The notes: generated from the sequence alone by a model not told the origin. A stretch of 64,000 nucleotides of DNA from Gemmatimonadales bacterium (GCA_041390205.1 JAWKQJ010000008.1:5842-69841); one strand, 5' to 3'. Numbered from the stretch's first letter, positions 1 to 20,777 are shown. Program-made: numbers and translations.

Positions 1-35
1 CGCCGCGATCGGTCGCTGAGCGGGACGGGCCGCCG

Positions 36-1115
36 TCAGGCCCAGAGCCCTTTGCGGGCGCGATAGTCCTCGCGCCCCCGGGCGATCACCTCGATCAACG
101 GCGCGGGATCGAAGCGCACCGGATCGGTGGCCGGGAGACCCGTCTCCTCGGTGGCCCGCCGGCAGGCCGCGCGCGCGTCCGCCTCGCTCAGATCGAAGGT
201 GTTGAGCGAGATCCCGATGACCCGCGTGGGGTGGACCGCCGAGCCGAGCATCTCGTAGAGCTCGACGTAGCGGGCGAGGCTCGGGATCTTGAGCCAGGGC
301 GTCGTGCGATACTCGCCGATGTGCTGCCGGCTGGTCTGATGACAGAGGATCATCGCGTCGGGGCAGGAGCCGTGGAGCAGCCCGAGGGTGACCCCCGAAT
401 ACCCGGGATGGATGATGCTGCCCTGGCCTTCCACCAGCACCACGTCGGCGTCCTTCGCGCCCTTGAGCACCAGCTCTTCGGCCGCTCCCGCGATGAAGTC
501 GGCGACCACCGCGTCTACCGCGATGCCCCATCCCTCGATGAAGATCCCGGTCTGACCGGTGGCGACGAAGCTGGTCCGCAGGCCACGCTGCTTGAGGCCG
601 GCCACCAGCTGGAGCTGGGCGGTCATCTTGCCGACGTTGCAGTCGGTCCCGACGGTGAGCACCACGTAGGGATCGACCAGCCGGGCCATCCCGGCGCCGA
701 TCGGCAGCTTGGCCGGGGGCTTTCTGGCGTCGAGGATCGACCGGCCGTGCCGCTTGGCCGCCGCCGCGATCTCGGGATCGTCGCTCAGGAAGGTGTGGAG
801 CCCGCTGATCAGGTCACACCCGGCTTCGATCGAGCGCACCAGCCAGGCGCGCCACTCGTCGGGGAGCTTCCCGCCGGCGGGGGCGATGCCGATCATCACG
901 GCGGTCGGCTTGAGCGCCAGGCCTTCTTCGATCGAGGCGACCACCGGGATGGCGCCGCCGAAGCCGAGCACCTGCTCGGCGGTCTTCCCCGCCGAGCGCC
1001 GGTCCAGCACGGCGACGACCCGGCCGGGATGATACCGGATCACCGAGTTGGCCGTCTTCGACTCCAACGGGTGGAAGTTGCCGTCGGCGATGATCAGGTA
1101 GCGAGGGCTGTCCAT
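36..1115 (-). CDS. DUF1611 domain-containing protein (D-glutamate N-acetyltransferase-like family)
   Basis: Intact 359-aa ORF. GTDCNVGKMT and VEGQGS..HPGYSG segments match my memory of the DUF1611 family. No search was run. Confidence 0.75.
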   Translation of the reverse strand: MDSPRYLIIADGNFHPLESKTANSVIRYHPGRVVAVLDRRSAGKTAEQVLGFGGAIPVVASIEEGLALKPTAVMIGIAPAGGKLPDEWRAWLVRSIEAGCDLISGLHTFLSDDPEIAAAAKRHGRSILDARKPPAKLPIGAGMARLVDPYVVLTVGTDCNVGKMTAQLQLVAGLKQRGLRTSFVATGQTGIFIEGWGIAVDAVVADFIAGAAEELVLKGAKDADVVLVEGQGSIIHPGYSGVTLGLLHGSCPDAMILCHQTSRQHIGEYRTTPWLKIPSLARYVELYEMLGSAVHPTRVIGISLNTFDLSEADARAACRRATEETGLPATDPVRFDPAPLIEVIARGREDYRARKGLWA

Positions 1116-1140
1116 GTGGGGTATCGGGAATTAAGGACAC

Positions 1141-1163
1141 GGCCCGGACCGTTCGGCCGGGCC
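1141..1163 (-). terminator. GC-rich hairpin between pspA stop and the DUF1611 start (terminator or attenuator candidate)
   Basis: GGCCCGG(A)CCG-TT-CGGCCGGGCC is a 10-bp stem with one bulge. On the minus strand it is followed by the moderately T-rich GTGTCCTTAATTCCC. It lies only 26 nt upstream of the next start, so its role is ambiguous. Confidence 0.3.
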
Positions 1164-1170
1164 AGAAAAT

Positions 1171-1190
1171 CGTATACAATACTGTATGCG
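1171..1190. promoter_or_regulatory. AT-rich inverted repeat CGTATACA-ATAC-TGTATGCG (candidate operator)
   Basis: 8-bp arms with one G-T mismatch, core ATACA-N4-TGTAT, sitting in a locally AT-rich pocket of a GC-rich genome. Confidence 0.25.
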
Positions 1191-1225
1191 AAAACCCCCG
1201 GGGTCAAGCCGACACCCGGGAACCG

Positions 1226-1999
1226 TTACGCGGCCGACCCGTCGTCCTCGACCACCTCGGCGTCGTCGACGCCGTCGGCCGCCGATTCGCCGCCGGTGCC
1301 GAGCTGCTTGGCGGCCTCGCCTTTGCCGAGCAGGCCCATCTTGGCCTTGAGCTCGATCAGCTGCTGATCGGCCGAGCCGTGATACTCGAGCTGCTTGAAC
1401 TGGGCCGAGAGATCGTCGGTCTGGAACTCCTGCTGGATCTCGGCGGCCGCGAGCGCCTTCCGCTCGATCGCCTCGATCTTCTCCGTCATCCGCTCGAAGG
1501 ACTCGAAGGCGCTCTTGTCGGACATGCCCGACATGGTCTCCTGGATCCGCTTCTGGGCCTCGGCGCGCTTGGCCCGCGCGATCAGGATGTTCTTCTTCCG
1601 CTTGGCTTCTTCGATCTTGTCGTTGAGCTGACGGAGCTGGATCTTGAGCGCTTCGGTCTCCGCCTTGTGCTTGACCCAGGTCTCGTGCAGGGTCTGCGCG
1701 CCCTGGAGCGCCTCGTTGTAGCGCAAGAGGGCCTGCTTGGCCAGGTCGTCACGGCCTTCCTGCACGGCCAGCATGGCGCGCCGCTCCCAGTCTTCCGCCT
1801 GCTTCTTCAGCGCGTCGGCGTCGGACTGGAGCTTCTTCTCGTCGGCGATCGCGGCGGCGGCTTCCTGCTTGGCCTTCGCCAGCTGCGACTTCATGTCGAG
1901 AATCAGCTGATTGAGCATCTTCTCCGGGTTTTCCGCCCGGGAGATCAAGTCGTTGATGTTCGACTTGATCATCGTGGAGAAGCGTTCGAAGATCCCCAT
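1226..1999 (-). CDS. pspA: PspA/IM30 family protein
   Basis: 257 aa. The canonical N-terminus MGIFERF..MIKSNINDLISRAENPEKMLNQLILDM is followed by a long heptad coiled coil and an acidic tail. The ATG lies 6 nt after the ybjN-like stop. Confidence 0.9.
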   Translation of the reverse strand: MGIFERFSTMIKSNINDLISRAENPEKMLNQLILDMKSQLAKAKQEAAAAIADEKKLQSDADALKKQAEDWERRAMLAVQEGRDDLAKQALLRYNEALQGAQTLHETWVKHKAETEALKIQLRQLNDKIEEAKRKKNILIARAKRAEAQKRIQETMSGMSDKSAFESFERMTEKIEAIERKALAAAEIQQEFQTDDLSAQFKQLEYHGSADQQLIELKAKMGLLGKGEAAKQLGTGGESAADGVDDAEVVEDDGSAA

Positions 2000-2005
2000 C
2001 GGAGC

Positions 2006-2401
2006 TTACCTTTCGCGGAACGGTGCGAGCGCGCCCAGGTGCGACGAGAGCGCGAGCGAGAGCGAATCGAAGCTGGCCTCGAACTCGGAGTAGTCGAGAC
2101 TCTCGAGCTCGAGCGCGTCGGTCAGCACGACGTGGTTGCCTTCCAGACCGTAGGATCCGTGCACCAGGTCGCTGGCGTTGAGCTTCAACAGCTCACGGAA
2201 GAGGCCGGTCTGCTTGTCGGCGGTGGTCGGCGGCTCCATGACCCGGACCCGCAGGATCACGACCGGGGGCGAGTAGCTGACCACGATCTCCGCCCCGGAC
2301 CCGGCGCGCACCAACCAGAGCCCCGGCTCGACCTCTTTGGACTCGAGCGAACCGCCTTCGAGCCGGTCGATGAACGCCTGGATGTCTTCCTTTGTCACCA
2401 T
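2006..2401 (-). CDS. YbjN-like / type III secretion chaperone-like small acidic protein
   Basis: 131-aa ORF with a strong SD (GCAGGAGGGAGCGGCATG). The alpha/beta pattern resembles the YbjN family; that assignment is from memory and tentative. Confidence 0.55.
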   Translation of the reverse strand: MVTKEDIQAFIDRLEGGSLESKEVEPGLWLVRAGSGAEIVVSYSPPVVILRVRVMEPPTTADKQTGLFRELLKLNASDLVHGSYGLEGNHVVLTDALELESLDYSEFEASFDSLSLALSSHLGALAPFRER

Positions 2402-2474
2402 GCCGCTCCCTCCTGCAAGGATCGGGCGACTACAAGTTACACCGCGACACCAGGGACCGCTTCGGCCGGGCGAG

Positions 2475-2864
2475 CTACGGGAGCCCGCCCGTCTCCTCCT
2501 GCTTCGCCTGGGCGAGGAGCCGCTCCGAGAAGTCCACGCGCTCCTCCAACTCGAGCACCCGGGCCCGGAGCTCGTCGAGCTCGGCCATCACGGTCTCGGG
2601 CGGCAGCTCGCTCGAATCGCCCTGGGACTGGATCCGGCGCGCGAGCGCCTGTCCGACCGGGCCCCGGAGGACGACGGCGGCCGCGATGCCGCCGACCACG
2701 GTGGCCGGGATCACGAAGTCCTCGCCCACCACGAGGCCCAGCACGGTGTAGGCCGCCAGCGCCAGGGCGGCCAGCACCGCGAGCGTCGTCAGGGAACGGT
2801 CCCGGCCGCTCATCGCGCGCGCGCTCGATCCGTCATCGCGGCGTCGGGGTGGCGGGGTCGGCAT
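2475..2864 (-). CDS. Small membrane/coiled-coil protein, array member 8 of 8 (two predicted TM helices)
   Basis: 129 aa with the motifs GPVGQALARRI and ELEERVDFSERLL. The ATG has GAGG 6 nt upstream and overlaps member 7 by 32 nt. An alternative ATG exists at 2813. Confidence 0.7.
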   Translation of the reverse strand: MPTPPPRRRDDGSSARAMSGRDRSLTTLAVLAALALAAYTVLGLVVGEDFVIPATVVGGIAAAVVLRGPVGQALARRIQSQGDSSELPPETVMAELDELRARVLELEERVDFSERLLAQAKQEETGGLP

Positions 2865-3141
2865 CGCGGGCCTCGCCCGAGGCCAGCAATCGCTCGGCGA
2901 AGTCCAGTCGCTCCTCGAGCTCGAGCACCCGGCTCTGCTGCTCTTCCAGCTCGGCCACCCGGGCCTCGAGCTCCACGACTCGTTGCGCGGCCATCTCGCC
3001 CGTCGAGAGCCCGTCCTTCGAGTCGCCGCCTCGCTTGGCGCCGATCAGGCGGCCCAGCGCCTGCCCGACCGGCCCGAGCAGGAGCGAGCCGCCGATCACG
3101 CCGACGGCGATGAAGAGCGCGAAGAATCCGCTTTCACCCAT
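2833..3141 (-). CDS. Small membrane/coiled-coil protein, array member 7 of 8
   Basis: 102 aa: one TM helix, GPVGQALGRLI, GLSTGEMAA and LELEERLDFAERLL. A GGAGGA SD is present, with an 8-nt overlap with member 6. Confidence 0.75.
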   Translation of the reverse strand: MGESGFFALFIAVGVIGGSLLLGPVGQALGRLIGAKRGGDSKDGLSTGEMAAQRVVELEARVAELEEQQSRVLELEERLDFAERLLASGEARDADPATPTPR

Positions 3142-3448
3142 CGGCGGGGGATCCTCCGGCCGGGGTGGCCACCCGCTCGCCGCTGCCTTTGACCAGCAGT
3201 CGCTCGGCGAAGTCGAGACGCTCCTCGAGATCGAGGAGCCGGGCCTGGACCGCCTCCAGCTCGCCCAGGCGTGACTCGACGTCGGCCAGCCGCTCGGCGG
3301 CCATCTCGCCGGTCGAGAGCCCCGTCTTCGCGCCGGCGTCCTTGCCGCCGATCCGCCGGGCGAGGGCGTGGCCGACCGGTCCGGCCAGCAAGGCGACCAT
3401 CATCCCGCCGACGGCGAGGAAGAACGCGACGAACGCTGGATCACCCAT
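3134..3448 (-). CDS. Small membrane/coiled-coil protein, array member 6 of 8
   Basis: The internal ATG at 3448 of the 159-aa ORF gives 104 aa (MGDPAFVAFF..). It has a GGAGGG SD 6 nt upstream and the motifs GPVGHALARRI and DLEERLDFAERLL. Confidence 0.75.
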   Translation of the reverse strand: MGDPAFVAFFLAVGGMMVALLAGPVGHALARRIGGKDAGAKTGLSTGEMAAERLADVESRLGELEAVQARLLDLEERLDFAERLLVKGSGERVATPAGGSPADG

Positions 3449-3818
3449 CGGAACCCTCCGCTCCGGGCAGTTTGGCCGGCTCGGTGGCGCGAGCCAGCAG
3501 GCGCTCCGTGAAGTCGAGCCGCTCCTCCAGCTCGGCCACCCGACCCTGGGCGTGCTCCAAGTCCGCCATCCGCTGCTCCATCTCCTCGAAGCGAAGGGCG
3601 GCCATCTGGCCACTCGAGAGCCCTTCCGGATCGGCGGGCGCCCGCTTCAGGGCGAAATGGCGGCGAAAGCCAAGCGCGATCAGGGACGCCGCGACGACAC
3701 CCGGAATCACTTCCTCGTCGCCCTGCATGCCGACGAAGGCCATCAGCATCGCCGTGACCGCGGCGTGGAGGAACACGTCGAACCACTCGAGGCCGATGTT
3801 GCGCTTGAACCAGCCCAC
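3441..3818 (-). CDS. Small membrane/coiled-coil protein, array member 5 of 8 (two predicted TM helices)
   Basis: 125 aa, GTG start 1 nt after the member 4 stop. Contains GLSSGQMAAL and ELEERLDFTERLL. Confidence 0.7.
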   Translation of the reverse strand: MGWFKRNIGLEWFDVFLHAAVTAMLMAFVGMQGDEEVIPGVVAASLIALGFRRHFALKRAPADPEGLSSGQMAALRFEEMEQRMADLEHAQGRVAELEERLDFTERLLARATEPAKLPGAEGSDG

Positions 3819-3819
3819 C

Positions 3820-4083
3820 TCAGCGGAGCTCCCGAGCGGCTTCCGTCGTCCTGGCCAGCAGGCGCTCCGCGAACTCGACCCGCTCGTGGAGCTCGTCGCG
3901 GTCGCGCTCCAGCTCAGCGATCCGCGCCTCGAGGTCGAGCACCCGTTCGTCCGACGCCGGGGAATGGCCTTCCAACCGCTTGGCCAGCGCCCGGCCGATC
4001 GGCCCCCGCAGCACCAGCGCCAGACCGCCGACCACCATCATGGTGGTGGCGATGATCATCGGAGCGACGTCGCTCGGGTTCAT
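3820..4083 (-). CDS. Small membrane/coiled-coil protein, array member 4 of 8
   Basis: The internal ATG at 4083 of the 226-aa ORF gives 87 aa (MNPSDVAPMII..) with a GGAG SD. Motifs are GPIGRALAKRL and LHERVEFAERLL. ATGA overlap with member 3. Confidence 0.7.
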   Translation of the reverse strand: MNPSDVAPMIIATTMMVVGGLALVLRGPIGRALAKRLEGHSPASDERVLDLEARIAELERDRDELHERVEFAERLLARTTEAARELR

Positions 4084-4430
4084 TGCTCCGCCGGCCTCCC
4101 GATCTGCTCCGGTTGCCGCTGGGCGAGCATCCGCTCGCTGAAATCCACCCGGTCCTCCAGCTCCGCCAGACGCTGATGCAGCCCGTCGACCTCGCCGAGA
4201 CGGGCGCGCAGGTGCTCGACTTCTTCCTTGAGCGCCGGGTCGCCACCACCCCGCTCCAACCGCCGGGCCCAGGCCCGGACCAGCGGGAAGAGCAGCAGGC
4301 CGCCGACCACGATCGCGATCACGGCGATGATCAGCTCTTCGGGCGGCCCCCCGCGCGGCGCGAAGATCACCGGGAAGTCTTGCGGCAGCTCCGGAATCGG
4401 GGGCAGCGGCGGCAGCGGGGCCTGTTGCAT
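4080..4430 (-). CDS. Small membrane/coiled-coil protein, array member 3 of 8 (Pro-rich N-terminus)
   Basis: 116 aa: Pro-rich leader, TM helix IIAVIAIVVGGLLLFPLV, ARRLER and ELEDRVDFSERML. The ATG lies 2 nt after the member 2 stop. Confidence 0.7.
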   Translation of the reverse strand: MQQAPLPPLPPIPELPQDFPVIFAPRGGPPEELIIAVIAIVVGGLLLFPLVRAWARRLERGGGDPALKEEVEHLRARLGEVDGLHQRLAELEDRVDFSERMLAQRQPEQIGRPAEQ

Positions 4431-4432
4431 GG

Positions 4433-4723
4433 TCAGCTCGGCTCGTTGGGAGCGGCAAGACGCGAGGGCTCGTTCCCCTGGGAGAGCACCCGCTCGGCAA
4501 AGTCGAGGCGCTCCTCGACCTCGGCCAGCCGGGCGCGCACCTCGTCCAACTCGACCACCTGGCTCCTGAGCAGCTCGACCTCCTGGTCGCTCAACTGGCT
4601 CGCCTCACGATGACCCAACTTGCGGCCCATCGCGGAAACCAGGATGAACGCCGCGTACCCGAGCGTCCCCGTGACGATCAGCGTGAGCATCACGCCCGCG
4701 AAGGTGAGGACGTCCGGACTCAC
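4433..4723 (-). CDS. Small membrane/coiled-coil protein, array member 2 of 8
   Basis: 96 aa, GTG start in a GTGA overlap with member 1. One TM helix and EVEERLDFAERVL. Confidence 0.7.
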   Translation of the reverse strand: MSPDVLTFAGVMLTLIVTGTLGYAAFILVSAMGRKLGHREASQLSDQEVELLRSQVVELDEVRARLAEVEERLDFAERVLSQGNEPSRLAAPNEPS

Positions 4724-5016
4724 GGCGCGACCCGCCTCGGCTCGGGCTCCGAACGCTGCGCCAGCAACCGCTCGCTGAAGTCGATCCGTTCCTCGGCGTC
4801 GAAGAGACGCTGCTCGAGATGCTCGACCTGCTGCTTGAGGGCATCCATTTCCTGGAGCACTTCGGGGTCCTGCTGCCCGCTCCGTCCCGCGATCCGGCGC
4901 GCCAATGCCTGCCCGATCGGGCCGCGGCCGACCCCGACGACCGCGTAGCCGACCGCCACGACCGAGATCACCCCGGTGAGCATGCCCGCGATCGGGACTA
5001 GCACGTCTGGACCCAT
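4720..5016 (-). CDS. Small membrane/coiled-coil protein, array member 1 of 8
   Basis: 98 aa, ATG start. One TM helix, GPIGQALARRI and AEERIDFSERLL. Confidence 0.7.
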   Translation of the reverse strand: MGPDVLVPIAGMLTGVISVVAVGYAVVGVGRGPIGQALARRIAGRSGQQDPEVLQEMDALKQQVEHLEQRLFDAEERIDFSERLLAQRSEPEPRRVAP

Positions 5017-5140
5017 CGGCGCCCTATTCTATTGTGTGTCCGACACTTGCGGCCAGGCGTCCAGGCTGGTTCCAGGACGTGCCGATCCGACCGAGCCTAC
5101 GGCCGGACGTTCCATAATGTTTCATGATGGACGACCCTTT

Positions 5141-5356
5141 TCAAGCGATGTCCACCCGGCTGATCTGGGTGAGCGACACGGCGATCTCGATTTCCTGCGC
5201 ACCGATCGGGTGGAGGTAGACCTCGTGCGCGCCGATCTCGCGGTCGACGCTGGTAGGGATGCCGACGATCTCCCGGCGATCGAGGGTGGTGATGCGAACC
5301 GGCTGCTCCTGCCCCGTGGCAAAGCTGAGGAGCTCTACGATCGACTCGTATTGCAT
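5141..5356 (-). CDS. Hypothetical small protein (71 aa)
   Basis: An ATG at 5356 inside a spurious 723-aa ORF gives MQYESIVELLSFATGQEQPVRITTLDRREIVGIP.., whose composition is non-repetitive and protein-like, unlike the Arg/Gly-rich upstream part. No family recognised. Confidence 0.4.
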   Translation of the reverse strand: MQYESIVELLSFATGQEQPVRITTLDRREIVGIPTSVDREIGAHEVYLHPIGAQEIEIAVSLTQISRVDIA

Positions 5357-5443
5357 CCGTGCCTCCGGCCGAGGGTTCCCGCCAATGTAGCGTGGCCGGT
5401 TCGATCTTTCGAATCCAGAGTCCCGATCGCAGATTGAGCGTCC

Positions 5444-7300
5444 ATGACCCCGTCCTCCTCCCGCCCCGCGCCAGCCGAGCCTGCCCGGCTCGCGGCCCAC
5501 TGGACGAGGCATTGGGTGCCGGCCCGAGAGGCGCTCCGGAGCCATTGGCGGCCCGCGCTGCTGCTGCTCGGCCTCGGCGCCTTGGGGCTGGCCGCGGCCG
5601 CCGCCACCAGCGCCCTCGCCCCTCCCTCGAGTGGCGCCTGGCCCCTCTCGGTCGCTTCCGACCCGGGACCGATCGACGCCGGCGTCGCGTGGACCTCGGG
5701 CGCCCGGACCCCGGCGGGCACGGCCAACCTCGCGGCCCGCCGCCTCCTCGAGCTGCTGGCCGTGCTCGGTTGGGTGAGCTTCGCGGTCGCGGGCGTCTCG
5801 ATCCTGGCCCTGGGCGTGGCGCAGATGGATACCCGGGCCAGCGAGGCGACCGTTCGCCGGGCCGTCGGCGCCTCGCGTCGGGCGCTGCTCGCCTCTCATC
5901 TCCTCGAGGGAATTGTCCTGGTCGCGGTCGCCGTGCCGCTCGGCATCGCGGTCGCTCGACTCGCGAGCGCCGGCGCCGCCGCGACCTGGCCCGGCGACGT
6001 CGGCCCGAACGGGGCTCGGGCCTGGCTCCTGCCCACGCTGCTCACCGGCGGGCTGCTCCTGTTGGCGGCCGGGTCCGCGTCGTTCGGCGCGCGCCGGGCT
6101 CGTCTCGCCGACCCGCCTCCCGAGGAGGTCGGCCTCAAGGTCCCGATCTTCCAGATCGCGCTCTCGAGCGCGCTGCTCGTGGCAGCCCTGCTGGTCATCC
6201 AGCGGGCGCGGGCCACCCCGGAGGCGACCAGCCCGGCTCTCGCCGGCGACGTCTCGGTGCTGCTCAGCGGCCTCCCCGAGGAGCTGACGGCCAGGTCGGA
6301 GCGGCTCAAGGCCGCGCTCGGCCGGCTGGCCGACGACGATCGGTTCGACGCGGTCTACCTGACCAGCCCCGGCCAGTCGCGCGGCCTGGGCACGATCGAC
6401 GCGATCAGCACCGACTGCGGCGCCTGTCCGGCGGCCGGGGTGATCCTCCGCTGGCATCATCTCTCCGCGGTCCATCACGTCGTCTCTCCCGACACCTTTC
6501 GGGCGGAGGGCATTCGCGTCGCGGAGGGCCGCGGCTTCACCACGCTGGACGATACCTCGGCGGAGCGGGTGGCCGTGATCAACCGGGTGCTGGCGAACAA
6601 CCATTTCGAAGCCGCCGGCGCACTGGGCCGGCCGCTCTACCTGGCGCGCGGCTTTCTGACCGAGCCCTATCGAGTGGTGGGCATCGTGGACGACCGGCCG
6701 GCGACCGCGTTCGGCGGCCCCTCTCAGCCCGTCGAGACCGTATACCTCTCGGCCTATCAGCACCCACCCGACCGGGCCGAGCTGCTGCTGCGCCCGGCGG
6801 CTGGGACGCCGCACGACTCGATCGACGAGGCGGTGGGGCCCGCGTTGGCGGGGGCCAGGCTGGAAGCGGCGGAGCGACTCGCGGTGCGTGCACGCCGCGG
6901 GAGCGCCGTGGTCGGGTGGCTCGGACGGAGCTTCGAGGTCGCGGCCCTGGCGACGCTGCTGGCGGCCGTCGTCGGTCTGGCCGCCGTGCTCGGCCTCTGG
7001 ATCGCGTCGCGGCGGCGCGAGCTGATGCTCCGCCGCGCGGTCGGATCGACGCGGGTTCGGATGCTCGGCTTCGTGCTGGCGCGGATCGGCGGCGCAGTGG
7101 GGCTCGGTCTGGCCCTCGGCCTCTTCTTCTTCGCCTCGGTGCTCTGGGCGGCGTTCGACGCCGTGCTGGAGGGCTTCCCTCTCGTCGACCTGCGGGTGTT
7201 GCTCACCGTGGCCGGCATCGTCACGGTCGCCTCGCTCGCGGCCACGATCGGATCGCTCGGGCGGCTCGCCCGAGCCAACCCCGCGGAGCAGCTGCATTGA
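5444..7300 (+). CDS. FtsX-like ABC transporter permease, duplicated (ADOP/MacB-like), no adjacent ATPase
   Basis: 618 aa with two TM clusters ending in FtsX-type segments, the C-terminal one being LRRAVGSTRVRMLGFVLARIGG... A periplasmic domain lies between the clusters. Confidence 0.8.
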   Translation: MTPSSSRPAPAEPARLAAHWTRHWVPAREALRSHWRPALLLLGLGALGLAAAAATSALAPPSSGAWPLSVASDPGPIDAGVAWTSGARTPAGTANLAARRLLELLAVLGWVSFAVAGVSILALGVAQMDTRASEATVRRAVGASRRALLASHLLEGIVLVAVAVPLGIAVARLASAGAAATWPGDVGPNGARAWLLPTLLTGGLLLLAAGSASFGARRARLADPPPEEVGLKVPIFQIALSSALLVAALLVIQRARATPEATSPALAGDVSVLLSGLPEELTARSERLKAALGRLADDDRFDAVYLTSPGQSRGLGTIDAISTDCGACPAAGVILRWHHLSAVHHVVSPDTFRAEGIRVAEGRGFTTLDDTSAERVAVINRVLANNHFEAAGALGRPLYLARGFLTEPYRVVGIVDDRPATAFGGPSQPVETVYLSAYQHPPDRAELLLRPAAGTPHDSIDEAVGPALAGARLEAAERLAVRARRGSAVVGWLGRSFEVAALATLLAAVVGLAAVLGLWIASRRRELMLRRAVGSTRVRMLGFVLARIGGAVGLGLALGLFFFASVLWAAFDAVLEGFPLVDLRVLLTVAGIVTVASLAATIGSLGRLARANPAEQLH

Positions 7301-19898: not shown

Positions 19899-20708
19899 TC
19901 AGCGGCGAATGGCGCTGGCGGGCGCGAGCGCGAAGTCGCGGTTGGCTTCGTGGGCGGCGTCCTGGAGCAGCGACGCCACCGCCTGGGCGAGCGGTTGGGT
20001 CGAGGACCCGATCCGGATCTCGGCCGGGAGGCCGACGGCGGACTTGCCCGAGAGCTGCTCGTACATCACCAGCGCGGCGAGATAGGTGCCCAGCACCGAG
20101 GGATGGAAGCCGTCGGGTCCGTAGAGAGCCAGGTTGGGCGACTGCGCCCACGCCTTTCTCCAGGCCTCGCCCGCCGGGAAGAGCAGGCCGTCGACCTGTC
20201 GGGCCGCCGTGGCATACGAGTCGGACACGCCGTCGAAGTCGAAGGAACGGCTCGCGGCGGGCCAGACCATGTAGAGGGCCGGTCGGGCTCCGGTGGGCTC
20301 CATCAGGTCGGCGAACCGCTGGGAGTACTCGAGCAGGGAGGGCCGGCCCTCGGTGGCGGACGGCCCCTGCTGGAGCACGACCACGTCCCAACCGCCCCGT
20401 CGGATCCGCTCGCTCACGTCGCCAACGGCCCAGTGATCTTCGAGGCCGTAGTTCGGCAGCGCGACGCTCTCGACCACCACGGGGCCGATGTCGGCCCGCT
20501 CGAGGAGGCCCGCCAGCATGCCAGGCAAGTCGTTGGAGTAGGTGAGGCTGTTGCCGACGAAGAGGATCGCGAGGGCGTCGGGGTCGGGCGCCGCCGGTCC
20601 GGAGCAGGCTGGCGCCGGCAGGGAAACGCCGAGCAGACCGAGGAGCAACGCGCCGCGCGAGCGCGGACGCCACCCGAAACGAGCACGGGGTCTCGGAGGG
20701 ACGGCCAA
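19899..20708 (-). CDS. SGNH/GDSL hydrolase-type lipoprotein
   Basis: 269 aa. Signal plus Cys (LPAPAC), FVGNSLTYSNDLP block I, DVVVLQQG, and a late DGFHP block. Confidence 0.7.
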   Translation of the reverse strand: MAVPPRPRARFGWRPRSRGALLLGLLGVSLPAPACSGPAAPDPDALAILFVGNSLTYSNDLPGMLAGLLERADIGPVVVESVALPNYGLEDHWAVGDVSERIRRGGWDVVVLQQGPSATEGRPSLLEYSQRFADLMEPTGARPALYMVWPAASRSFDFDGVSDSYATAARQVDGLLFPAGEAWRKAWAQSPNLALYGPDGFHPSVLGTYLAALVMYEQLSGKSAVGLPAEIRIGSSTQPLAQAVASLLQDAAHEANRDFALAPASAIRR

Positions 20709-20777
20709 GGGATCCTCGAGGTGGGGGTCCCTTATCGCTACGGCTCGGTCTCGGCTCCCGGTTTCAGCACCCCGGGC

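Follow-up and report, generated by a model that had tools for sequence, protein, structure and literature searches.

A tandem array of small membrane/coiled-coil proteins encoded upstream of pspA in Gemmatimonadota

What do eight small, related membrane proteins encoded back-to-back ahead of a pspA gene do, and are they relatives of known PspA partners? The question is raised by the minus strand of a 64,000-nucleotide stretch of a Gemmatimonadales genome (GCA_041390205.1 JAWKQJ010000008.1:5842-69841; the window), where a sequence-only reading had proposed eight translationally chained PspB-like genes, M1 to M8, between positions 2475 and 5016. All eight ORFs are present at the coordinates it gave, as seen in the ORF listing and by reading the sequence directly. 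M1 (4720..5016, 98 aa) combines one TM helix, the motif GPIGQALARRI and a coiled coil with a terminal EERIDFSERLL; M2 (4433..4723, 96 aa, GTG start) has one TM helix, a coiled coil and EERLDFAERVL; M3 (4080..4430, 116 aa) adds a Pro-rich leader to its TM helix, coiled coil and EDRVDFSERML; and M4 (3820..4083, 87 aa) has one TM helix, GPIGRALAKRL, a coiled coil and HERVEFAERLL. M5 (3441..3818, 125 aa) contains two hydrophobic helices, a coiled coil and EERLDFTERLL. A single TM helix and a coiled coil are again found in M6 (3134..3448, 104 aa, GPVGHALARRI, EERLDFAERLL) and M7 (2833..3141, 102 aa, GPVGQALGRLI, EERLDFAERLL), and M8 (2475..2864, 129 aa) displays a basic N-tail, two hydrophobic helices, GPVGQALARRI, a coiled coil and EERVDFSERLL.

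The junctions are also as described earlier when read directly in the window. The GTG start of M2 lies in the M1 stop (4-nt GTGA overlap), 2 nt separate M2 from M3, the M4 start overlaps the M3 stop by 4 nt (ATGA), and a 1-nt gap precedes M5; the M5/M6 and M6/M7 overlaps are of 8 nt each and that of M7/M8 is of 32 nt. An alternative M8 ATG near 2813 has no SD sequence. Six of the eight starts are preceded by a GGAG/GAGG-like SD motif, those of M1 and M3 being without one, which bears out the claim that most starts carry it. The next gene follows M8 after 73 nt and pspA comes 6 nt later.

Long spurious ORFs are common in high-GC DNA, and several are found on the opposite strand of the window. 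However, the reading of the array as chance open frames, or as pseudogene copies in decay, has virtually no probability left. Codon-position GC is coding-like in the proposed frames (GC3 0.87-0.94, GC2 0.41-0.51), and the dN/dS estimate that the earlier reading had called for, made against orthologs in the sister genome L001, gives 0.05-0.24. Thus, the eight ORFs are real genes under purifying selection and not high-GC artefacts. The size of the family (about 3,134 representatives at E<=1e-3) and the conservation of motif and synteny across 80 loci likewise refute the chance-frame and pseudogene explanations.

M1 to M8 are indeed paralogs of a single family of small membrane/coiled-coil proteins. 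Their common predicted build is an N-out/C-in membrane helix followed by a cytoplasmic coiled coil that ends in ELEERLDFAERLL. Hydropathy recovers one hydrophobic segment in M1-M4, M6 and M7 and two in M5 and M8, where a helical hairpin takes the place of the single helix, and the GP(V/I)GxAL motif is present, as reported, in five members (M1, M4, M6, M7 and M8). The C-terminal block deserves to be called near-invariant: R, F, E, R and L are identical in 8/8 window members, R-x-[DE]-F-x-E-R is found in 523 of 553 family members, and E-7, E-4, R-3, D-1, F0, E+2, R+3 and L+5 are 88-100% conserved across the family. For the TM region, hydrophobicity alone is conserved. In our hydropathy scan of 540 members, 432 have one TM helix, the N-tail (median 5 aa) holds 0.2 K/R and the 12 aa after the TM carry 2.3 K/R; the predicted topology places the conserved block in the cytoplasm, the same compartment as PspA. 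The AF2 model of M1 (pLDDT 86) contains helices at residues 3-31, 33-44 and 51-88, which are, in order, the TM helix, a short juxtamembrane one and a long one predicted at pLDDT 91-99. A heptad pattern runs along the cytoplasmic helix and, in the register that we assigned, neither the invariant Phe nor the charged residues occupy the a/d core; this points to a face that may bind a partner.

The gene that follows the array (2006..2401, minus strand, 131 aa) has a strong SD sequence, AGGAGGGAG. It had been taken for ybjN-like but actually encodes a type III chaperone-like protein of the CesT_Tir_1 family (PF22550, E 2.1e-23). The identification of the last gene as pspA holds: its 257-aa product (1226..1999, minus strand), a bacterial ESCRT-III-like protein, matches PF04012 PspA_IM30 with 157.6 bits (E 4.7e-46) over profile positions 1-217 of 220. 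Since it reaches 144 bits against TIGR02977, under the equivalog cutoff of 243, it is a PspA-family protein and not the E. coli ortholog. Its C-terminal tail, VDDAEVVEDD, fits the phylum consensus VHDAE[VL][VL]E. With the CesT_Tir_1 gene directly upstream of pspA on the same strand, the locus contains a CesT/Tir-PspA dyad of the kind already described (Ravi et al. 2024, PMC11237479). The core pair and its order are the same, but the partners reported there are band-7/flotillin, AAA+ ATPase, YqiJ/YuaF or polyamine-metabolism genes; that study describes no array of small single-pass proteins and does not mention Gemmatimonadota. Of 62 loci, 49 have a CesT-like gene separating the array from pspA.

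In B. subtilis, pspA (ydjF) is a member of the sigma-W regulon. A predicted promoter of ECF-sigma type, TGAAAC-N17-CGTA (TGAAACATTATGGAACGTCCGGCCGTA), is located at 5098..5124 on the minus strand, 81 nt ahead of the start codon of M1 and just past the stop codon of the preceding 71-aa ORF. The motif occurs twice in the window, where 0.02 occurrences would be expected. Strict TGAAAC-N16-17-CGTA stands at most 260 nt ahead of the first array member in 61 of 78 loci, and only 71 strict matches exist in all of the 2.45 Mb scanned, these 61 among them; the relaxed form TGA[AC]AC-N16-17-CGTA precedes the first member in 69 of 78. In many loci another TGAAAC-like hexamer follows 10 nt further downstream, and the clade without the CesT-like gene carries TGACAC at -35. 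An AAC-containing -35 and a CGT-containing -10, 16-17 nt apart, are thus conserved upstream of orthologous operons, as in ECF promoters. The motif agrees with the sigma-W-type consensus of B. subtilis (PMC5758882): the -35/-10 elements are identical to those of sigma-W (ECF01) promoters, TGAAAC-N16-CGTA, with a spacer of 16-17 nt here, although the phylum differs and the likeness is one of sequence alone. Among 22 window ORFs left by stringent filtering, a crude regex scan found no ECF sigma gene. This putative ECF-type promoter, of envelope-stress style, counts as support for an envelope-stress operon.

The operon is flanked by genes for DUF1611, an Hfq-like ORF, a MacB/FtsX-like permease, SDR, UDG and OtsAB. 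The Hfq-like ORF (5141-5356, 71 aa) lies upstream of the array; its AF2 model (pLDDT 92.7), an N-terminal helix and a five-stranded bent beta-sheet, superposes on Hfq, and its top Foldseek matches are all Hfq (TM-score 0.72-0.77, 15-21% identity). The protein is thus predicted to be Hfq/Sm-like by fold; it has no Pfam sequence match to prove that it belongs to the Hfq sequence family.

How general is this organization? We considered 80 loci, the best-scoring of at least 404 matches and therefore not a random sample, from a single phylum and mostly from MAGs. Linkage meant a pspA on the array's own strand no more than 1.2 kb downstream, and 65 loci had enough downstream sequence to be testable. 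The proposed link to pspA extends to related genomes: in 62 of these 65 Gemmatimonadota loci, pspA comes directly after 2-13 tandem paralogs (median 7) in the same orientation, the three exceptions being solo or duo copies. A few solo family copies are found away from pspA (L048, L081). Stop codons of successive array genes are spaced by a median of 311 nt, and NTGA start/stop overlaps occur at 188 of 475 junctions. At 50% identity, the family comprises about 3,100 representatives; neither Pfam nor NCBIfam offers a model for it, and no mention of it was found in the literature. Nor did we find any description of such an array beside pspA, as the sequence-only reading had supposed; the eight-fold array that it singled out is better seen as one instance of a phylum-wide array of 2-13 copies. 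The array-pspA layout recurs across the phylum with 2 to 13 copies, and the small proteins thus seem to be partners of PspA that make up an undescribed family.

Orthologs at matching array positions in different genomes share 50-60% identity; paralogs of the same genome share 35-50%. By these comparisons, together with the dN/dS values, the paralogs are old and each is individually maintained. The closest paralog of M7 is M6 (57% identity), and copy number in the sister genome has been altered by a recombination event.

PspB binds PspC and PspA and is required for induction of the Psp response. The label PspB-like stands for architecture, the array proteins being predicted, like PspB, to be small bitopic proteins (~75-130 aa for both) with an N-terminal TM helix and a cytoplasmic alpha-helical C-terminus, in one operon with pspA; as a statement of homology it finds no support in profile matches or hhalign. 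If they were nonetheless highly diverged true PspB homologs, they would, with a PspC-like partner, sense stress and free PspA from a transcription factor. NCBIfam PspB TIGR02976 indeed matches 29 of 115 members at E<=0.1 (best E 3.3e-5) and is collinear with some of them (M3 residues 34-108 with model positions 7-71 of 75), but every score is far under the cutoff, with 10-14 bits against 51.7 for window members, and Pfam PspB PF06667 matches no array protein in any profile search. Models of GspM (33/115) and CcmI (32/115) match equally many members, so that the PspB signal corresponds to a generic TM plus coiled coil. Alignment with hhalign retrieves the short stretch noticed earlier, RVAELEERLD versus RIQALESILD, an R(I/V)xxLExxLD at similar distance from the TM helix in both, yet gives 10.5% probability over 15 columns, a weak test as the PspB profile is shallow (Neff 1.45). 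The array proteins end instead in their own near-invariant block. Some psp operons do have duplicated pspB genes (PMC11237479), but the genetic context differs. In place of pspA-pspB-pspC with divergent pspF and a sigma-54-type promoter, the order here is array, CesT-like gene, pspA, behind an ECF-type promoter and with 2-13 tandem copies upstream, not downstream, of pspA, and a scan of the genes next to the operon on either side showed no PspC or PspF-like regulator. PspB homology is therefore unsupported, the likeness being confined to architecture, and we consider it distinctly unlikely.

We give an even chance to an envelope-stress operon of diversified membrane anchors or sensors sharing one cytoplasmic docking helix for PspA. 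From its ECF-type promoter, the operon would produce eight paralogous small membrane proteins, the CesT/Tir-like chaperone and PspA. Each small protein would be held by its N-out/C-in helix (a helical hairpin in M5 and M8), from which a coiled-coil helix of ~40 residues projects into the cytoplasm; the common terminal block would be an output module docking or regulating the co-encoded PspA at the inner membrane face, and the diversified TM and juxtamembrane parts would make the members distinct anchors or sensors. Copy number would change as neighbouring paralogs recombine unequally. We infer contact with PspA, induction by stress and a division of labour among paralogs. Points against this reading are the copy number, which at 2-13 implies no fixed stoichiometric complex, the few solo copies away from pspA, the failure of profile searches to relate the array proteins significantly to any known PspA partner, and a set of loci drawn from one phylum.

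Alternatively, the paralogs could form a hetero-oligomeric coiled-coil membrane scaffold of their own, PspA being co-regulated in the same ECF regulon without contact. The heptad pattern, the very confident helix prediction, the existence of solo copies away from pspA and the positionally conserved, non-redundant paralogs would suit such a multi-subunit assembly. On the other hand, a copy number of 2-13 between genera fits poorly with a defined hetero-oligomer, the most conserved residues, charged or aromatic and outside the a/d core, suggest an external partner, and the near-absolute adjacency to pspA goes beyond what co-regulation needs; we find the scaffold rather improbable. CesT-family chaperones bind helical or extended client segments, and with their gene so often inserted between array and pspA, the small proteins might be chaperone clients, their C-terminal helix being held before membrane insertion or the proteins themselves passed to another machine, with PspA a bystander that buffers the membrane. 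This seems very unlikely: the 13 loci without a CesT-like gene retain array-pspA adjacency and the C-terminal motif (78/88 members), which makes PspA, or the proteins themselves, a likelier common partner than the chaperone, and the CesT/Tir-PspA dyad is widespread without such an array.

LiaI in Firmicutes and PspM in Actinobacteria are lineage-specific small membrane anchors of PspA/LiaH. We propose a functional analogy with these, as lineage-restricted small membrane proteins co-operonic with a PspA homolog under envelope-stress control; the sequences are unrelated, profile searches and hhalign giving no significant similarity of array proteins to any known PspA partner, and LiaI and PspM are single-copy, against 2-13 paralogs with a common coiled-coil motif here. 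PspA is repeatedly paired with small membrane proteins (PspB/C, LiaI, PspM; PMC11237479), and the tandem multi-copy array varies this theme in a new way. A bolder possibility, to which we lend limited credence, is that the array encodes combinatorial membrane-embedded receptors or nucleators, each paralog sensing a different membrane state with its own TM and juxtamembrane part and all recruiting or templating the PspA polymer via the common cytoplasmic helix. If so, they would play in bacteria the part of ESCRT-III nucleators, and their repertoire would evolve by unequal crossing-over.

The eight-gene array is real and conserved. Its eight minus-strand ORFs (M1, 4720-5016, through M8, 2475-2864) lie exactly where a sequence-only reading had called them, and the junctions described there are borne out by the sequence, with GTGA and ATGA 4-nt overlaps, along with two 8-nt overlaps, one 32-nt overlap and gaps of 1 and 2 nt. 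Shine-Dalgarno sequences of the GGAG/GAGG type, claimed for most starts, were seen 2-12 nt upstream of six of the eight; among all eight starts inspected, those of M1 and M3 carry none of this type. These ORFs are genuine genes, as supported by their codon-position GC (GC3 0.87-0.94, GC2 0.41-0.51), which is like that of the flanking known genes, and by dN/dS values of 0.05-0.24 against orthologs in the sister genome L001 (GCA_050184075.1; amino-acid identity 90-98%). The alignment of M1-M8 displays invariant R, F, E, R and L in the C-terminal block, and hydrophobic segments number one in M1-M4, M6 and M7 and two in M5 and M8. M8 is followed after 73 nt by a gene of the CesT_Tir_1 family (2006-2401, minus strand; PF22550, E 2e-23) and, 6 nt later, by pspA (1226-1999, minus strand; PspA/IM30, PF04012, E 5e-46).

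No significant match to M1-M8 was found in Pfam, NCBIfam, PHROGs or PADLOC. When 115 family members were scanned in addition with Pfam and NCBIfam, DUF6752, DUF5320, MtrG, SlyX-like, GspM and CcmI came up as sub-threshold coiled-coil or transmembrane noise. Searched against PDB sequences, the family profile retrieved only coiled coils of GCN4 and SYNZIP type, at E>0.04. The eight-member profile matched more than 4,500 proteins in a word-indexed search; among the best 120 matches listed, those with a named source were all Gemmatimonadota entries called 'hypothetical protein', the others bearing just an automatic functional label and no organism, and none has a Pfam domain. When 1.84 billion cluster representatives were searched exhaustively with HMMER, 3,134 matched at E<=1e-3 and 1,033 at E<=1e-10; of the best 150 listed, nearly all are free-standing proteins 83-136 aa long. 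At 50% identity the family amounts to about 3,100 clusters, and neither Pfam nor NCBIfam has a curated model for it. Some metagenome proteins of the family (P0001, P0002, P0004, P0007 and P0249) are two or three times as long (120-262 aa) and carry the motif two or three times. They reflect either true fusion of, or deletion between, adjacent paralogs, or else artefacts of frameshift or read-through. The first four look like read-through or deletion fusions and were set aside, since the membrane topology of a true fusion would be awkward.

The signature of the family is R-x-[DE]-F-x-E-R, found in 523 of 553 members collected from 83 sequences (the window, 80 loci of GTDB species representatives and two contigs encoding an M2 ortholog), within the consensus ..RVAELEERLDFAERLLAQxRE.., after which comes a tail of about 19 residues. 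With the invariant Phe numbered 0, conservation reaches 88% at E-7, 96% at E-4, 100% at R-3 and 94% at D-1, then 100% at F0, E+2 and R+3 and 96% at L+5. Hydrophobic positions (-23, -20/-19, -16, -13, -9, -6, -2, +1, +5) follow a 3-4 heptad spacing; since the invariant Phe and the charged residues fall off this heptad core, we infer that they form a surface for a partner. By-eye comparison showed a misfit of the motif with the ESCRT MIM1 pattern and with that of SHOCT, whose Pfam model also gave no match. In the AlphaFold2 model built on a 115-sequence alignment, helices span residues 3-31 (transmembrane), 33-44 (juxtamembrane, GPxGxALARR) and 51-88 with pLDDT 91-99 and no tertiary packing (pTM 0.43). 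The N-terminal tail has a median of 5 aa with 0.2 K/R, against 2.3 K/R in the 12 residues past the transmembrane segment; this charge distribution predicts an N-out/C-in topology, which would place the conserved helix in the cytoplasm.

In a comparison of 62 PspA orthologs from the loci with that of the window, the IM30 domain is followed by a Gly-rich linker (..KQLGxG..) and then a conserved acidic motif, VHDAE[VL][VL]E(D/E), which reads VDDAEVVEDD in the window (tail at 1226-1336, minus strand) and is also found in loci devoid of the CesT-like gene. This tail is a candidate short linear docking motif and, more speculatively, a candidate counterpart to the Arg-rich face of the members' helix.

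The sequence-only reading had regarded the array as PspB-like, and the architecture and the partnership with pspA in one operon do indeed echo PspB; as a claim of homology the idea fails. Pfam PspB matched none of M1-M8 or the 115 family members, and NCBIfam TIGR02976, whose cutoff is 51.7 bits, scored three window members at 10-14 bits. At E<=0.1 this model matched 29 of the 115 family members, with GspM matching 33 and CcmI 32. Comparison of profiles by hhalign, with the family set against enterobacterial PspB, gave 10.5% probability over 15 columns; on this value membership was rejected, the PspB alignment being shallow because the search brought back close relatives only. The members are not mimics of the PspA helices either, since hhalign against the PspA profile gave 0.1%. 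Ravi et al. 2024 (PMC11237479) described a CesT/Tir-PspA dyad and, for some operons, duplicated pspB genes, and mention neither Gemmatimonadota nor an array of small single-pass proteins.

Less likely rivals to a partnership with PspA are true remote homology to PspB, a coiled-coil scaffold that acts independently of PspA, and a role for the array proteins as clients of the CesT-like chaperone. All of the 80 best-scoring loci (from at least 404 matches among GTDB species representatives) belong to Gemmatimonadota, and an HMM scan of six-frame ORFs revealed same-strand tandem arrays of 2-13 members (median 7 among 65 complete arrays), with a median stop-to-stop period of 311 nt; 188 of 475 junctions are NTGA overlaps in frame with the member that follows. 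Among the 65 loci with at least 1.5 kb beyond the last member, pspA lies on the same strand within 1.2 kb downstream in 62; the three others hold just one or two family members each. Solitary or paired members away from pspA occur at L081:10001-10288, flanked by genes for an alpha/beta-hydrolase and an M20 peptidase, at L048:1256-1474 and in L061, so that family membership is not strictly tied to the psp locus. As for the chaperone, a CesT-like gene separates array and pspA in 49 of the 62 loci, and in the 13 loci that lack it the C-terminal motif is retained in 78 of 88 members.

Array positions are orthologous between related genomes: M1-M8 correspond to L001 positions 1-7, and the window array is colinear with those of loci L004, L005 and L006 at 50-60% identity, paralogs within the window sharing 35-57%. 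In more distant genomes colinearity is partial, with local duplications and losses. L001 has seven members and the window eight, and the L001 'member 6' (L001:9278-9583) is chimeric, its 5' ~140 nt resembling M6 (3134-3448) and its 3' ~165 nt M7 (2833-3141), with the crossover inside a shared GGGCTCTCGACxGGCGAGATGGCCGC segment. This is direct evidence for an 8-to-7 contraction through unequal homologous recombination of neighbouring paralogs. The product, in which one paralog's transmembrane module is joined to the coiled-coil module of the paralog that follows, is evidently tolerated, and it accounts for the apparently higher dN/dS (0.4) of M6 and M7.

Upstream of M1, TGAAAC-N17-CGTA (5098-5124, minus strand) lies 81 nt before the start codon and 16 nt past the stop of the preceding ORF. 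Judged by its AAC at -35 and CGT at -10, it is a putative ECF sigma promoter of classic pattern. The B. subtilis pspA gene (ydjF) is a sigma-W target. Promoters of sigma-W in this species read TGAAAC / CGTA, and ECF spacers measure 14-17 nt (PMC5758882). Of 78 loci, 61 have the strict pattern no more than 260 nt upstream of their first array member (spacer of 17 nt in 57 and 16 nt in 4), out of just 71 matches on both strands of 2.45 Mb of locus DNA; relaxed to TGA[AC]AC, it reaches 69 of 78 loci with 79 matches overall. Loci of the CesT-less clade carry TGACAC-N16-CGTA with an embedded TGAAAC. An ECF-like match was found in 1 of 72 gaps separating the last member from the CesT-like gene or pspA, a near-lack consistent with a single transcript. 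A crude regex on 22 high-confidence window ORFs detected no ECF sigma gene, and Rfam gave no match in window positions 1-6000.

In many promoters (at 5098-5124 in the window and in the upstream regions of L004-L080), a second hexamer, TGAAAC, TGGAAC or TGCAAC, stands exactly 10 nt past the first, as in TGAAACATyCTGAAACGT; loci of the CesT-less clade have TGACAC as the leading hexamer and an invariant TGAAAC as the other. The pair might act as a direct repeat recognised by a response regulator and overlap the ECF-type promoter. The window holds two TGAAAC/CGTA matches against 0.02 expected. The sole other one in the 64 kb, TGAAAC-N18-CGTA at 20739-20766 (minus strand), sits between the end of a uvrA-like ORF (20778) and a 269-aa ORF (19899-20708, minus strand) with a lipoprotein-like signal (..LPAPACSG..), which may be a further member of the same ECF regulon. 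Several CesT-less loci also encode what by eye is a uvrA-like C-terminus immediately before their first array member.

The ORF preceding the promoter (5141-5356, minus strand; 71 aa) has no Pfam, PHROGs or PADLOC match. Its predicted structure is an Hfq/Sm-like fold (pLDDT 92.7) whose top PDB matches are all Hfq (TM-score 0.72-0.77, identity 15-21%), and the ORF may encode a diverged Gemmatimonadota Hfq. It is kept upstream of the array in most loci, either adjacent or about 2 kb off with serine dehydratase genes intervening. As these genes intervene in many loci and the promoter follows its stop, we treat it as a neighbour and not as the first gene of the operon. In the window, a 618-aa MacB/FtsX-like permease ORF (5444-7300, plus strand; PF12704, PF02687) is placed between it and an SDR gene. 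At that position L001 has just a 76-aa ORF (L001:6979-7209), which suggests a recent deletion or insertion.

We propose that ECF control would drive an envelope-stress operon holding the array and pspA, in which a variable set of paralogous membrane anchors or sensors would share one cytoplasmic output helix working with PspA, with the CesT-like protein as an accessory in the majority of lineages. That the members bind PspA, that stress induces the operon and that the paralogs are specialised is what we infer from these data, at about even chances of being right. Full-text literature searches returned nothing relevant on PspA with Gemmatimonadetes or Gemmatimonas, nor on the motif strings, and as far as we could find both array and family are undescribed. 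The family is new, and as an array it is a new form of the known theme 'PspA plus small membrane partner'. PspA/Vipp1 proteins are bacterial ESCRT-III membrane-repair machines, and to our knowledge their targeting to damaged membrane is poorly understood beyond a few model phyla. Here a large family displays a sharply conserved candidate docking helix and a conserved stress-type promoter, in an unusual array organisation that expands and contracts, and its peptide and promoter motifs provide concrete, testable reagents.
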